Below are positions 1,773-59,028 of a DNA stretch of 64,000 bases, piece by piece (position 1 is the first letter of the stretch; each line of letters opens with the position of its first letter). Position numbers and translations under genes: made by a program. The notes under the pieces were generated by a model that saw only the letters and a list, made by a program, of their open reading frames with translations, was not told where the DNA came from and did not search any database. The DNA lies in the NCBI GenBank assembly GCA_023137195.1, contig JAGLPV010000010.1, positions 15,383 to 79,382 on the forward strand, read 5' to 3'. The DNA comes from Candidatus Aenigmatarchaeota archaeon (GTDB lineage: Archaea > EX4484-52).

Positions 1773-1845
1773 AGCCCTGTAGTCTAGTGGCCAAGGATAC
1801 AAGGCTCTGAACCTTGTGACGGAGGTTCGAATCCTCCCGGGGCTA
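1773..1845 (+). tRNA. tRNA-Gln(CTG)
   Basis: Acceptor AGCCCTG/CGGGGCT, anticodon arm CAAGG-CTCTGAA-CCTTG, T-loop GGTTCGAATCC; A1-U72; no encoded CCA. Confidence 0.97.
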
Positions 1846-9244: not shown

Positions 9245-9438
9245 AATCTCAAATAGAAGAATACAATAAAAAAGCTTATAAATGTTTGTCTCGCCATGAA
9301 TCTGGTAAACTATGGGTTTGGTGCCGGATTTGGGGTTTCTTTGGAAAATATAGGACTTTCTTTGTTTGATGTTTGGTTGTTTGGATTGTAAGGTAGAATG
9401 TCTTGGCAAAAATTAAATTTTGTAGTCTTATAAAATTT

Positions 9439-9600
9439 TTACGCTTACGCATATTTTCTGCAGTCTTACAAAATTTACGTGCAGAAAATAACCATGAAAA
9501 TCGCTGGGCTTACATAATTTACCGCGCTTTTCAAGGTGTTTTGGTGCTCACTGCGGAATTTGCTCTTATGGGGCAAATTCCTTTGTTCACTACCGAAACA
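9439..9600 (-). ncRNA. tRNA-trailing structured element, copy 1 (directly 3' of tRNA-Glu)
   Basis: Clearly similar to 54389-54561 and 58784-58951; stems UGUUUCGGU/ACCAAAACA, GGAAUUUGC/GCAAAUUCC, UAUUUUCUGCA/UGCAGAAAAUA; ends GCGUAAGCGUAA. The repeat is seen directly; RNA status is inferred. Confidence 0.7.
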
Positions 9601-9693
9601 TGCTCCCGCCGGGATTCGAACCCGAGTCCCTGGCTTTCTTTTAAAATATTTATTGAAAGGCCAGTATCCTTGGCCGGTCTAGACTACAGGAGC
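9601..9693 (-). tRNA. tRNA-Glu(TTC) with 18-nt intron at 37/38 (9636-9653)
   Basis: GCTCCTG/CGGGAGC acceptor; CTGGC-CTTTCA[ATAAATATTTTAAAAGAA]A-GCCAG; canonical BHB with CUUU/AAAG helix and CAA/AAA bulges. Confidence 0.96.
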
Positions 9694-9894
9694 TTATGCC
9701 ATTTGTTTTCTATATTGATTTACTTCATCAGTCAAATCCGGGGTTGAAAGAAAAGCAGAACGACAACAATAATTTTCTATACCTAGTGCATCAAGCACTT
9801 CTTTTTTTGATTTAAACTTTATCTGAGCCTGGTATTGCTCCCATTTGTCTGCTAGTAACTCACCGCATGAGATGCATCTTACTGGAATTAACAT
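9694..9894 (-). CDS. rpoN: DNA-directed RNA polymerase subunit N (Rpo10)
   Basis: MLIPVRCISCG...LDALGIENYCCR. Confidence 0.96.
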   Translation of the reverse strand: MLIPVRCISCGELLADKWEQYQAQIKFKSKKEVLDALGIENYCCRSAFLSTPDLTDEVNQYRKQMA

Positions 9895-15292: not shown

Positions 15293-16879
15293 TTATAATT
15301 CCTCGGTTATATCAACAACTTCATATTGTTCATCAACTGCAAGTTCTGTATCTACTGCCCCACTGGCAGTCTTGATAATTTTTCCTTTCGATTTCCTGAT
15401 TTCTTTTGCAATCTCGACAACAAGTTTGTGTGCCTTTCTCAAATCATCATGCACTAACTTCACAAGTTTCTGTGCTTCAGTCATTTTTGTTTTTATCTCG
15501 CCCTTTTGCTCATCAGTTAAATTTGCATTATCCTTCCTGATTTCATATGCCTCTTTAATCAATTCTTCCGCCTGTTTATAATTCTCGTGAGCATCGCTTA
15601 TATGCTGACTGTATTGGTCTATTTTTTCATCTATTGCACTTGTATTTATTCCCTCTTCCTGCATTTTTGAAACAGACCTGTCAAATATTTCTTCCAGATG
15701 CTCTGCTCTTTTTATAAGACCCCATACCTTTGCATGGACAAGTCTTGCTCTCCATACCTGTTCAGCATGTCTTGTTTTAGCCCATATTTCCCTTACTGTA
15801 GCTGCTGCCTCTTTCACCTCTTCTTTTGTCTGGGCACCGTCTGCCTGTGTCTTTGCATTCTCCAGTTCAGAAATCGCAGAATCAATGTTTGCAATAATTT
15901 CATCTGCTCTCGTCTGGTTTATCTCTTCTGCCCTCTCAAGAGAGTATTTAATCTTATTCAAATGATTAATTAACCTCTCTGCACTCTTGGCAACCACTTC
16001 TTTTGCATGTTCCTGTGCCTGATTTCTCAATTCCTCGCATTCTGTTGTATTGGAATCATTGCATTGGGCTAATTTTGTCTTCACCGCAACGAATTTCGAA
16101 TATCTATCCTTATATTCGTTATTTATTTTCATATAATTTTGTTTGGCAAGCTTGAAATCCTTTTCCGCTTTCAGAAGTTTCTCCTTTGCTATAACTCTCT
16201 TTTTATTCACCAACTCTTTTTTTGTTTTTACAAGCTGGTAATTACTAATTCTTTTCTGCATTTCATCATTGTTAAGCTTCAACAGATTTTCCTGCTGGGC
16301 TCTTGAAAGATAAGTGAATACTTTTGCCTCTTTATCCGATAATGCTTCTATTTTTGCCTCTGCACCGGGATTTTTATTGACAACACCGTCTATTTTTCTC
16401 AATCTCCAGTCTGCTACTTTTTCCCCAACGGCAGCACCCAACATAGTCCTGCTCCTTATAGTTGCAACATTAACATTTGAACCCCTTACAATGTCTGATG
16501 TAGTTGTAATTTGCGCTGTAGTCACAAACAATTTACTGCACACAATAACAGGGTGTTCAACACCCTTTTCCTTCAGAAATTCAGCGCAATTTAACTCTTT
16601 TTTCAACATCCTGCCACAAAGCACTGCCGGGTCGTCTGCAAGATTATTATTTTTTACATAAGTTATGCATTTTGCCAACATTGGTTCTGATGTTGCAACA
16701 AGTCTATCTACCATTTGAACCCCTGATCTCAAAATAGGTTCTGTATCTGCACTTGTCAGAGCCACATCACCAGTATCCTCTCCATCAACACCATCTGCAT
16801 CTACAACTGCCAAAGCAAAAGGCACCATAGCAACTGCAATCATCATAATCGTCATCAAAAAAATAGATTTCATTTTCAT
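15293..16879 (-). CDS. Secreted alpha-helical coiled-coil protein
   Basis: Sec signal peptide ending ALA; long helical repeats; probably co-transcribed with the lipoprotein. Confidence 0.75.
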   Translation of the reverse strand: MKMKSIFLMTIMMIAVAMVPFALAVVDADGVDGEDTGDVALTSADTEPILRSGVQMVDRLVATSEPMLAKCITYVKNNNLADDPAVLCGRMLKKELNCAEFLKEKGVEHPVIVCSKLFVTTAQITTTSDIVRGSNVNVATIRSRTMLGAAVGEKVADWRLRKIDGVVNKNPGAEAKIEALSDKEAKVFTYLSRAQQENLLKLNNDEMQKRISNYQLVKTKKELVNKKRVIAKEKLLKAEKDFKLAKQNYMKINNEYKDRYSKFVAVKTKLAQCNDSNTTECEELRNQAQEHAKEVVAKSAERLINHLNKIKYSLERAEEINQTRADEIIANIDSAISELENAKTQADGAQTKEEVKEAAATVREIWAKTRHAEQVWRARLVHAKVWGLIKRAEHLEEIFDRSVSKMQEEGINTSAIDEKIDQYSQHISDAHENYKQAEELIKEAYEIRKDNANLTDEQKGEIKTKMTEAQKLVKLVHDDLRKAHKLVVEIAKEIRKSKGKIIKTASGAVDTELAVDEQYEVVDITEEL

Positions 16880-54251: not shown

Positions 54252-54279
54252 AAACTTTTTTATTCTCATATAATCATTT

Positions 54280-54388
54280 GCCTTGATAGCTCAGTTGGTA
54301 GAGCGCGTGACTTGTATGCGCGAAACTCGTATGCGTGAAAACACTCCAGGAAATCACGCGGTCGGGGGTTCAAATCCCTCTCAAGGCT
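54280..54388 (+). tRNA. tRNA-Thr(TGT) with 36-nt intron at 37/38 (54317-54352)
   Basis: GCCTTGA/TCAAGGC acceptor; CGTGA-CTTGTA[intron]A-TCACG; BHB-like CUUG/CAGG helix with UAU and AAA bulges. Confidence 0.93.
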
Positions 54389-54561
54389 TAATTGGATAGT
54401 AAACAAAGGAATTCGCCGTCTTTCTCGTAAGGAGAGCGAATTCCGCAGTGAGCATCCAATTACCTTGAAAAGCGCGGTATTTAGCGTAAGCCCAGCGATT
54501 TTCATGGTTTTTTTCTGCATGTAATTTTCGTAGGACTGCAGAAAAAAGGCGTAAGCGTAAG
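54389..54561 (+). ncRNA. tRNA-trailing structured element, copy 2 (directly 3' of tRNA-Thr)
   Basis: UAAUUGGAU/AUCCAAUUA, GGAAUUCGC/GCGAAUUCC, UGAAAA/UUUUCA, UUUUUUCUGCA/UGCAGAAAAAA; GCGUAAGCGUAAG end. Confidence 0.7.
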
Positions 54562-54758
54562 AACACGCAATGAATCCTTATTAACCTCAAAAAGCATGGT
54601 ATTTTTCGTAAATCCAGTAATTTTAAACCCACATATCTTATCTAAAAAGAAAATTTATATTCTATTCGCCTACGCCAATCCATAAAGTAAAGTATATAAA
54701 GATTATCTTACAATTTTAATATGTATTATAAGTTTAAAACTAAAAAAGTAGATTTAAT

Positions 54759-56047: not shown

Positions 56048-56572
56048 ATGGGATTAAGACCTGCAAGAATATACAGAAACATGGACAATAAAAGACCTTA
56101 CACTAGAAGAGCCATTAAAGTCCATAAAAAAAACTACATCAAAGGAGTACCAGGAATGAAATTAAAATTATTTGAAATGGGTGTCAAAAAAGATTACAAT
56201 ACATGCCTGTCCTTATACATAAAAAACAACGCACAGATAAGACACAACGCATTAGAAGCAGCAAGGGTTGCCTCAAATTCATACATCAAAAAGAACACAA
56301 ATTTCTTTTTCTTAAAAGTAATGGTCTTCCCACACCACATATTAAGAGAACACGCTCAGGCAGCTATCGCTCAGGCAGACCGTTTCTATCAGGGAATGGC
56401 GCATCCATTCGGAAAGCCAAAATCAACAGCAGCAAGAGTTAGGTCCCACAAAGCAGTAATTAAACTCTATGTATACAAAGAAAATATAGAAGACGCAAAA
56501 ATTGCATTAAAACGAGCAGGAATGAAGCTACCCGCATCAACAAGAATAACTGTAGACGATATAGCCCTGTAG
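56048..56572 (+). CDS. rpl10e: 50S ribosomal protein L10e (uL16)
   Basis: MGLRPARIYR; QIRHNALEAARV; FPHHILRE; ADR...GM..FGKP...AARV. Confidence 0.97.
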   Translation: MGLRPARIYRNMDNKRPYTRRAIKVHKKNYIKGVPGMKLKLFEMGVKKDYNTCLSLYIKNNAQIRHNALEAARVASNSYIKKNTNFFFLKVMVFPHHILREHAQAAIAQADRFYQGMAHPFGKPKSTAARVRSHKAVIKLYVYKENIEDAKIALKRAGMKLPASTRITVDDIAL

Positions 56573-56635
56573 TGTAGTGGCCAATCATTGCGGGCTTTGA
56601 ACCCGCGGACAGAGGTTCGAATCCTCTCAGGGCTA
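56563..56635 (+). tRNA. tRNA-Gln(TTG)
   Basis: AGCCCTG/CAGGGCT; GCGGG-CTTTGAA-CCCGC; GGTTCGAATCC; overlaps the last 10 nt of rpl10e. Confidence 0.96.
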
Positions 56636-58621: not shown

Positions 58622-58676
58622 ATTTATAGAAAGGGCATTATTTTATAAAATATATCCTATTTTAATTACATTAAAT

Positions 58677-58760
58677 GTTGAGATCGCATAGCTCGGTATT
58701 GCGCCAGCCTGGAAAGCTGGTGGGTTTCGACCCTCGAGGGTTCAAATCCCTCTCTCAACG
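58677..58760 (+). tRNA. tRNA-Ser(GGA)
   Basis: GTTGAGA/TCTCAAC, discriminator G; CCAGC-CTGGAAA-GCTGG; long variable arm GGGT-TTCG-ACCC. Confidence 0.95.
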
Positions 58761-58951
58761 TTAAAAAGGAGTGAACAAAGGAATGTTTGGTGAGAGAACA
58801 AAGGAATTCGCCGTCTTCTCGTAAGGAGAGCAAATTCCGCAGTGAACCATCAAACACCTTAAAAAGCAAAGTAACACCTGTAAGACTTGATTTTTATGGT
58901 TTTTTTTCTGCGTATTTCTTGTAAGATGCAGAAAAAAGTCGTAAGCGTAAG
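58761..58951 (+). ncRNA. tRNA-trailing structured element, copy 3 (3' of tRNA-Ser), preceded by a partial duplicate of its 5' motif
   Basis: UGUUUGGUG/CAUCAAACA (58784-58792/58848-58856), GGAAUU/AAUUCC, UAAAAA/UUUUUA, UUUUCUGCGU/AUGCAGAAAA; CGUAAGCGUAAG end. Confidence 0.7.
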
Positions 58952-59028
58952 AAATAAGGAAGTTATGATAACCTCCTGTATTAGCGGTTATACGTAAATC
59001 TTGTTAAATTCAATCTGGTTTTTGACGC

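Follow-up and report, generated by a model that had tools for sequence, protein, structure and literature searches.

Bacterial repetitive extragenic palindromic (REP/BIME) elements, which are mobilised by RAYT/Y1 transposases, lack open reading frames (ORFs), occur in many copies as singles, inverted pairs or clusters, keep their hairpins through compensatory changes and are patchily distributed between relatives. The attC sites of integrons combine a variable sequence and a conserved structure with a strand-specific fold, conserved unpaired or mismatched positions and head-to-tail arrays at a fixed platform. In the plant dicistronic tRNA-small nucleolar RNA (snoRNA) genes and in MALAT1/mascRNA, a small RNA without a promoter of its own has its end set by tRNA-processing enzymes, and the promoter-less R2 element with its hepatitis delta virus (HDV)-like ribozyme is co-transcribed with the 28S rRNA and cut at its exact 5' end. 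Features of REPs and attC sites recur in the family of structured archaeal elements described here, and tRNA-snoRNA genes, mascRNA and R2 resemble the model that we propose for it. Three copies lie behind tRNA genes in the window, the stretch of 64,000 nucleotides that was analysed (positions 15,383 to 79,382 of contig JAGLPV010000010.1, here C2) from the Candidatus Aenigmatarchaeota assembly GCA_023137195.1 (here G000, the source genome; 1.42 Mb, 57 contigs, 85% complete). The family also resembles the tRNA-targeting retrotransposons TRE of Dictyostelium and Ty3 of yeast, which are reported to choose tRNA genes as safe landing places where genes are densely packed, at a set orientation and distance (PMC5006619, PMC6101501).

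Each of these systems also differs from the family. REPs are simple palindromes of 20-40 nucleotides without specificity for tRNA ends, whereas the units found here measure 103-175 nucleotides, are composed of several domains with conserved non-canonical pairs and stand flush with tRNA ends, and no intact RAYT/Y1 gene was found in the element-bearing genomes searched. In integrons, gene cassettes are set apart by attC sites, which depend on an IntI integrase encoded next to them, while the present units are contiguous and cargo-free, their platform is the end of any tRNA gene, and the sole tyrosine recombinases found in the source genome are two unlinked Xer-like genes (C1:6913 and C45:31442). 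The tRNA-snoRNA and mascRNA genes are single conserved eukaryotic loci with known functions, in contrast to a high-copy, fast-turnover archaeal family that in one genus also lies upstream of tRNA genes in antisense orientation. R2 catalyses its own cut and encodes its own enzyme, whereas the cut considered here would presumably be made by the RNase Z of the host, and no ribozyme family in Rfam matched the element. Finally, TRE and Ty3 encode reverse transcriptase and integrase and are reported to insert at a distance of tens of bases with the help of Pol III factors (PMC5006619, PMC6101501), unlike the element described here, which has neither an ORF nor a consistent reverse transcriptase and joins the tRNA at a distance of 0-2 nucleotides.

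The initial annotation of the window, made from the letters of the DNA alone, had recognised the element behind tRNA-Glu, tRNA-Thr and tRNA-Ser in tRNA sense orientation, with coordinates and orientations that proved right (Table 1). When the three window copies were aligned, the mean column identity was 83%. A covariance model (R1) built from 15 full copies of the source genome extended the family well beyond these three tRNAs, with 21 matches in that genome against 39 tRNA matches of the independent Rfam tRNA model; E-values of the covariance models built here are rough. Using these two independent models, 15 of the 21 element matches were found to start at the base right after the tRNA discriminator and on the tRNA strand. 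Behind tRNA-Ser(GGA) and tRNA-Val(UAC) element sequence is also flush with the tRNA but interrupted, by a 23-nucleotide fragment of another copy and by an insertion of about 70 nucleotides, respectively, and the Ser copy itself, which had been placed after its tRNA, is therefore not flush with it. The remaining matches comprise one at a contig start, one (on C43) that is the far half of a tRNA-Met copy split by an insertion sequence (IS), and two that form a tandem pair without a tRNA. In total, the element is carried by 17 of the 39 tRNA genes, which decode many different amino acids, while both tRNA-Gln genes of the window are free of it, as had been stated, with no match nearby. A gap of zero between tRNA and element leaves no room for a promoter or terminator in between.

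The family is not an assembly artefact, since its copies are found well within long contigs, and again in independent metagenome-assembled genomes (MAGs) and metagenome contigs. Four DNA read runs from one study, one of them possibly the source, covered the repeat at about 40-fold depth with many repeat-induced joints and no clean element-free allele, the uncovered parts being uninformative.

RNAalifold applied to the 15 copies of the source genome gave four helices with 46 pairs, 22 of which showed compensatory changes, and recovered the layout that had been read from the window copies, consisting of P1, the AGUGAAC core, the GGAAUUYGC stem, GCAGUGAGC, two more hairpins and the CGUAAGCGUAA tail. 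In domain 1, a variable 9-bp closing stem (P1), a core duplex, a small internal loop and the likewise variable stem P2 make up one long, irregular hairpin. As proposed, P1 differs in sequence between the window copies and still pairs in each of them, and the quoted pairs were right, except that the Glu copy contains one C·A mismatch (UGUUUCGGU/ACCAAAACA, pair 6-70). Between P1 and P2 lies the conserved core duplex GYGARC/GYGARC, which is nearly palindromic and includes two sheared G·A pairs; the tandem-GA pattern noted in the annotation is conserved in the form of a regular helix (G-C, Y-R, G·A, A·G, R-Y, C-G) and not as a kink-turn. Domain 2 forms a conserved hairpin CUUGAAAAGC...GAUUUUCAUG with one U·U (or C-G) and one G·A position, followed by a U-run, and the genus of the source genome adds a third, AU-rich hairpin and the CGUAAGCGUAAG tail.

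Single copies fold as the consensus does: the minimum free energy was -58.2 kcal/mol for copy 2 (z -4.53), whose own structure equals the alifold consensus, and -48.7 kcal/mol for copy 1 (z -4.26), and none of 200 shuffles folded as well. When 42 copies from three species of the genus were aligned, 95.3% of the cells were paired, 31 of the 46 pairs showed double changes and all four helices covaried, with a covariation score of 0.379 compared to 0.149 for shuffled alignments (0 of 500 reached it) and at most 0.084 when the partners were slid by 1-3 columns; this alignment was fitted to the covariance model and hence leans towards the model structure. The structure is under selection, and the covariation claimed from three copies holds in these three species. 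No ORF is conserved in the family because the helices change by compensatory substitutions.

Several features distinguish the two strands. The motif GUAA occurs 77 times in the 15 copies and its complement once, and in the predicted fold it caps domain 2 and the tail hairpin. G-U cells outnumber A-C cells by 16 to 8 in the genus of the source genome, in line with the earlier view of the G-U wobbles as a sign of single-stranded structure, and by 59 to 9 in the second genus described below. Likewise, copy 2 folds less stably in antisense (-49.6 kcal/mol) than in sense. These strand-specific features favour RNA, or at least a single strand that is read outward from the tRNA.

The annotation had not recognised the element as a named RNA family, in agreement with the Rfam searches. 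Rfam 15 run on the whole window at gathering thresholds reported tRNA alone; for positions 54380-54650 with E-values up to 10, the best non-tRNA matches were microRNA models (E at least 2.9), and an array of the second genus yielded tRNAs and noise and nothing else at E up to 1. No intron or retron match was obtained for the window or for the copy at 54380-54650. Known structural motifs were considered for the core as well. A kink-turn was rejected because its would-be bulge bases pair and covary (pair 12-64 in the genus of the source genome; pair 12-55 in the second genus, with CG in 22, UA in 19 and UG in 2 cases). The covarying pairs also speak against a box C/D sRNA (consensus RUGAUGA for box C and CUGA for box D), and no C/D spacing was noticed in the aligned copies, in which no pattern search was made. 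H/ACA and bulge-helix-bulge readings of the core were ruled out by covarying pairs and loop geometry. A full-text literature search, taken at the level of titles and the beginnings of abstracts, returned no description of such an element, and to that extent the family is previously undescribed and new both to Rfam and to the literature searched.

All relatives compared are incomplete MAGs, the genomes carrying the element being 57-86% complete. Among the 61 genomes searched with R1, matches were obtained in the source genome, in two of the three other species of its genus (G001 with 10 and G003 with 20) and in all four species of g11, a genus of another family, while the remaining 54 genomes gave none; the phylum-level search yielded the same 42 genomes as the order-level search and nothing further. 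The third congener, G002 (71% complete), has 25 tRNA genes well inside contigs and no copy, although these tRNAs include ten types that bear a copy in the source genome. At tRNA-Glu(CUC), an ordinary spacer in the source genome corresponds to a UUAAAAGUG-type copy in G001 and to a UAUUUGCCG-type copy with an identical partial tandem repeat in G003, the flanks beyond the element being too diverged to align, and at tRNA-Leu(UAG) the P1 subfamily differs between the source genome and G001. Within the source genome, identity between copies that follow unrelated tRNAs rises to 92.5% (97% for domain 1), and the copies are mosaics, since the clusters formed by domain 1 do not match those formed by domain 3. 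Intact copies are often trailed just downstream by degenerate partial ones, and truncated copies, tandem copies and one nested insertion were seen. Judged from these empty and filled orthologous sites, subfamily switches, mosaicism and decayed copies, the element is dispensable, comes and goes on the time scale of species within a genus and is exchanged between loci. In G003 (C29:9458-9752; L362:1259-1553) an exact partial tandem duplication begins at ACAAAGG (element position about 15) and directly follows the tail of the first copy, which suggests slippage or unequal recombination inside arrays.

Outside the two genera, weak matches centred on domain 2 were found in three further genera, one to four in each, and the four that were examined (Table 1) had no adjoining tRNA; they may be relics or an ancestral form. 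Among the 80 loci listed by a pattern scan of genome contigs, 12 contain a model match, all in archaeal MAG records, and the bacterial ones are chance occurrences. In the corresponding viral and metagenome scan (26 viral and 80 listed metagenome loci), which covered the element type of the source genus and not that of the second genus, the own-genus nhmmer profile matched, among the loci listed, only L208 and L273, both from one metagenome. The MAG records in which true matches occur bear the labels Candidatus Nanohalarchaeota, Candidatus Aenigmatarchaeota, 'Bathyarchaeota' or uncultured archaeon, and the DNA of the window occurs in cold-seep metagenome runs.

In the second genus, g11, the unit measures 103 nucleotides and consists of domains 1 and 2 alone. 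A MAFFT alignment of 44 distinct units, made independently of structure, had 97.3% of its cells paired and compensatory changes at 22 of 29 pairs, which none of 500 shuffles reached. The order-wide search gave 30-36 units per genome, and 39 were found when one genome (G014) was searched alone. The units are arranged head to tail in arrays of two to four diverged units that directly adjoin a tRNA gene on its upstream or downstream flank. The 5' end of the unit invariably faces the tRNA, downstream arrays being in sense and upstream arrays in antisense. The first downstream unit follows at gap 0 in 13 of 13 distinct units, while the gap of the 13 distinct first upstream units is 0 in two, 1 nucleotide in eight and 2 nucleotides in three cases; at tRNA-His, the unit begins just past the extra G-1 base (gap 2, ARAGORN). 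Different subfamilies are used on the two sides, with units starting in TCTAC in 8 of 13 downstream and 0 of 13 upstream positions and units starting in T[TA]TTTAATG in 6 of 13 upstream positions, counts that are not independent because the g11 MAGs are congeners. The 13-nucleotide apical loop of P2 in g11 units (e.g. L055:1453-1555 and L035:1025-1127) contains a conserved RUGCUCRC motif, absent from the genus of the window, with complementarity to the GYGAGC core strands within the unit itself or its neighbours, and an alternative or intermolecular pairing would be possible on this basis.

The source genome encodes an RNase Z (TIGR02651, 332.9 bits, C9:534-1427), which scored above the cut-off in 42 of the 46 genomes searched, and RNase P RNA was found in 4 of 5 genomes. 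Two scenarios were dismissed on these grounds, namely an organism without RNase Z in which the element is a substitute, and leaderless tRNAs in the absence of RNase P. On the minus strand of the source genome, at C9:443-1427, the RNase Z gene stops one base before a tRNA-Leu(UAG) that is followed by a flush element copy. This order of rnz, tRNA-Leu and element is kept in G001, with a spacer of 85 nucleotides, and not in G002, where the locus is useless as an empty-site comparison as the tRNA is not there.

The reading that we tentatively place first, at somewhat less than even probability, is that the elements are promoter-less hitch-hiker RNA genes which are co-transcribed with tRNAs and freed by RNase Z, and which are accessory, being either selfish or recently domesticated. 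For the copies in the window, co-transcription and RNase Z release make the simplest working model, because the junction has zero bases and leaves no promoter space, the fold is strand-specific and RNA-like and RNase Z is present. According to this model, the element would have no promoter of its own and would depend for its transcription on read-through from that of the tRNA; by cutting behind the discriminator, RNase Z would mature the tRNA and at the same time make the 5' end of the element at the foot of P1, and the released RNA of about 100-170 nucleotides would be the active form, its conserved loops and GUAA tetraloops serving as binding or docking surfaces. We infer the accessory nature of the family, as opposed to a part in tRNA biogenesis, from the pattern of presence and absence, the mosaicism and the decay; it may spread and reshuffle between tRNA loci as a selfish or recently domesticated hitch-hiker.

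A number of observations weigh against this reading. Its main weakness lies in the upstream antisense arrays of g11, which account for about half of the arrays and whose P1 still shows compensatory changes. Such units fit DNA-level targeting or folding as single-stranded DNA better, and sense RNA from them would need transcription of the opposite strand out of the tRNA gene, for which no promoter is evident. The annotation had offered a tRNA-co-transcribed RNA as one of two options, and this option agrees with the strand-specific fold, the GUAA loops, the zero-base gap and RNase Z, but pure co-transcription leaves the outward arrays on both flanks in g11 unexplained. The side-specific subfamilies suggest long-term adaptation to each side and not free hopping. 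Archaeal polymerases tend to stop at T runs, and runs of 4-8 T are present at the border of domains 2 and 3, yet domain 3 covaries. No two copies at different loci are identical. Across the six element-bearing genomes, all incomplete, no consistent transposase or reverse transcriptase partner was found, and in the junction sequences viewed, of which no systematic repeat search was made, neither target duplications nor terminal inverted repeats were noticed.

These last findings also count against a non-autonomous mobile element that acts at the DNA level, folds as single-stranded DNA and is inserted by a structure-specific recombinase or nuclease one base past the acceptor strand of the cloverleaf, on either strand, in the manner of attC sites, REP/BIME elements or the ends of IS200/IS605. 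Such an element would account for the g11 units that abut both tRNA ends with the 5' end towards the tRNA at gaps of 0-2 nucleotides, for their head-to-tail arrays of two to four diverged units, for the combination of variable sequence and conserved structure, for the copies at one non-tRNA site (the tandem pair on C8) and for the patchy distribution, in which the high-copy form is confined to the genus of the source genome (two of its three other species) and g11 (four of four); in addition, sheared G·A pairs in a Y-GA-R context are stable in DNA too. We nonetheless regard it as rather unlikely. The Y1 transposase domain PF01797 had no match in the source genome, and the five other carriers contain one 71-residue fragment with a stop (G003); TnpB (PF07282) was absent from the source genome, the sole carrier searched for it, and reverse transcriptase (PF00078) was absent there and present in one of the five others. 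Furthermore, the GUAA bias points to RNA tetraloops, and upstream and downstream units belong to different subfamilies. In the junctions viewed, the 5' end (P1) and the 3' end (CGUAAGCGUAAG) of the element do not look mutually inverted, in contrast to the true IS that interrupts one copy and has inverted ends and a 6-bp duplication. The other option of the annotation, the structured end of a tRNA-targeting mobile unit, was supported as far as turnover is concerned (presence and absence between congeners, subfamilies across unrelated tRNAs, truncated and tandem copies). The element is not the end of a larger unit, however, because neither a conserved sequence nor an ORF follows it and no Y1 transposase or reverse transcriptase accompanies it consistently; no longer, ORF-bearing copy was present among the 21 and 30 matches of the genus. 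No duplicate of a tRNA 3' end was noticed behind the elements in the flanks viewed, in which no direct-repeat search was made, and a reading as integrase att sites would require seventeen att specificities for seventeen different tRNAs.

We also consider it doubtful that the elements are a host-beneficial family of small RNAs, such as a ribonucleoprotein scaffold or a regulator, expressed in many copies through tRNA genes and homogenised by gene conversion. Strong purifying selection, which acts in two genera from different families both on the structure and on particular unpaired or non-canonical positions, the high copy number (17 of 39 tRNA genes here and 30-39 units per g11 genome) and the side-specific subfamilies would be expected of such a family, which has precedents in plant dicistronic tRNA-snoRNA genes and in the tRNA-like-dependent processing of mascRNA. 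It is difficult to reconcile, however, with the complete lack of copies among the 25 tRNAs of G002, with the absence of copies, or the presence of domain-2-like relics alone, in most genera of the phylum, with the frequency of decayed and truncated copies and with the differing occupancy of orthologous tRNAs between sister species.

A more far-reaching possibility, and in our estimate a distinctly unlikely one, is a new class of element that recognises, on either strand, the structural end of any tRNA, i.e. the acceptor stem and one base, and that needs no encoded enzyme to insert or copy itself there. Insertion might then proceed via hijacked tRNA-processing or repair enzymes or via an activity of the conserved core itself, and the released GUAA-rich RNA may assemble into a higher-order particle. 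If true, this would be the first structure-guided, tRNA-end-specific mobile RNA/DNA element in archaea.

Portable expression cassettes for tRNAs, with downstream units acting as terminator or insulator hairpins with U-runs and upstream antisense units supplying promoters, seem improbable to us. Each g11 unit does end in a hairpin followed by ...GAUUUUCAUGAUUUUU, the first run of at least five T after the tRNA lies at about 110-138 nucleotides, near the border of domains 2 and 3, in 9 of 17 loci of the source genome, and the first upstream units belong to AT-rich subfamilies (6 of 13 with T[TA]TTTAATG, against 8 of 13 with TCTAC downstream). A terminator, on the other hand, does not need about 100 nucleotides of conserved, covarying architecture with tandem G·A pairs, the position of the T run differs at the other 8 of the 17 loci, element-free tRNAs have no uniform nearby T run, G002 manages without the element and no promoter consensus was demonstrated. 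Least of all do we expect a self-cleaving ribozyme that works like the HDV-like or hatchet ribozymes and detaches from the tRNA by cutting its own 5' end. The variable P1 helix does have its foot exactly at the junction, and the conserved internal loops could make a catalytic core, but even with E-values up to 10 no Rfam ribozyme matched, the RNase Z that is present suffices, and the fold consists of three or four consecutive simple hairpins in which no pseudoknot or multi-helix junction was detected.

The features of the window and the weak matches in other genera are compiled in Table 1. Five tRNA genes were identified in the window with Rfam, two of which carry introns and were overlooked by plain ARAGORN; aragorn -i labelled the tRNA-Thr(UGU) gene wrongly as Ser(tga), while its G002 orthologue was called Thr(tgt).

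Table 1. Positions of tRNA genes, element copies and related sequences (window coordinates unless a genome is given)
Feature	Position	Strand	Basis and remarks
tRNA-Gln(CUG), element-free	1773..1845	+	Rfam, ARAGORN; no element match nearby
Element copy 1, 163 nucleotides, subfamily P1 UGUUUCGGU	9438..9600	-	R1 183.1 bits; gap 0 to tRNA-Glu
Copy 1, domain 1	9600-9538	-	
Copy 1, domain 2	9537-9491	-	
Copy 1, domain 3	9489-9453	-	
Copy 1, GCGUAAGC tail hairpin	9452-9438	-	
tRNA-Glu(UUC) with intron, host gene of copy 1	9601..9693	-	Rfam RF00005 47.5 bits; aragorn -i = Glu(ttc) with intron (C2:24983-25075)
tRNA-Thr(UGU) with intron, host gene of copy 2	54280..54388	+	Rfam RF00005 60.1 bits; anticodon from sequence
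Element copy 2, 173 nucleotides, P1 UAAUUGGAU	54389..54561	+	R1 192.7 bits; gap 0 to tRNA-Thr
Copy 2, domain 1 (P1, GYGARC core, P2)	54389-54462	+	
Copy 2, domain 2	54463-54507	+	
Copy 2, domain 3	54508-54547	+	
Copy 2, tail	54548-54561	+	
tRNA-Gln(UUG), element-free	56563..56635	+	Rfam, ARAGORN; no element match nearby
tRNA-Ser(GGA), host gene of copy 3	58677..58760	+	Rfam 56.7 bits; ARAGORN
23-nucleotide 5' fragment (UUAAAAAGG-AGUGAACAAAGGAA) from a copy belonging to another subfamily, directly adjoining the tRNA-Ser discriminator	58761..58783	+	Read from sequence; corresponds to the first 23 nucleotides of UUAAAAAGG subfamily copies
Element copy 3, 168 nucleotides, P1 UGUUUGGUG, most divergent of the three	58784..58951	+	R1 152.1 bits (C2:74166-74333); alignment
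Weak domain-2-like matches	G033:C241:2134-2196; G015:C53:6035-6107; G039:C97:672-764; G010:C10:26448-26543		Simple hairpin and domain-2-like hairpin (AGCUUGAAAAGC...GAUUUUCAUGA)

Mechanically derived ORFs of 67-114 amino acids run across elements and tRNAs of the window (54266-54520, 54381-54632 and 58666-58869 on the minus strand and 9403-9747 on the plus strand). Such spurious ORFs are an annotation hazard, as gene callers could report them as hypothetical proteins. With introns allowed, ARAGORN also reported a probably spurious tRNA-Leu with a 1.4-kb 'intron' on C39. A stretch of some 40 conserved nucleotides (AGTTATGATAAC..CTGTATTAG..GGTTAT) lies 3' of the CGTAAGCGTAAG tail at four loci (58955-59000 in the window and C15:5548-5616, C15:6612-6670 and C54:2487-2546 elsewhere in the source genome), and at two of them it is preceded by the last 30 or so nucleotides of the element alone, without a tRNA; this stretch could represent a module in its own right or an extended form of the 3' end of the element. 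The copy behind the intron-containing tRNA-Met is split inside domain 2 (C36:15704-15795 and C43:560-694; loci L021 and L017) by an unrelated element whose ends are inverted (CCTAAGTTTGACA...) and which shows what appears to be a 6-bp duplication, TTGAAA. Both contigs end in this insertion, which is probably a multi-copy IS that broke the assembly. The tandem pair on C8 (35003-35246, minus strand; L019/L359) lies at the very end of an ORF of 441 amino acids (...IPAWLFL) that runs a few codons into the element, with no tRNA near. Copies are found at the ends of six contigs of the source genome (C6, C36, C43, C49, C50 and C35, the last within about 115 nucleotides of the end), and the family is a practical hazard for assembly.

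Whichever reading holds, the family provides a clean natural data set for work on RNA structure, with more than 80 diverged copies and rich covariation. If insertion takes place at the DNA level, a precision of 0-2 nucleotides at both ends of unrelated tRNA genes would imply that the shape of the tRNA is recognised and not its sequence, a targeting principle that did not turn up in the titles and abstract openings of the literature searched. If, on the other hand, the elements are RNAs released by RNase Z, they would constitute the first prokaryotic case known to us of a high-copy element that depends on tRNA 3' processing for its maturation, and a new, abundant family of structured RNAs in a barely studied archaeal phylum with very small genomes.

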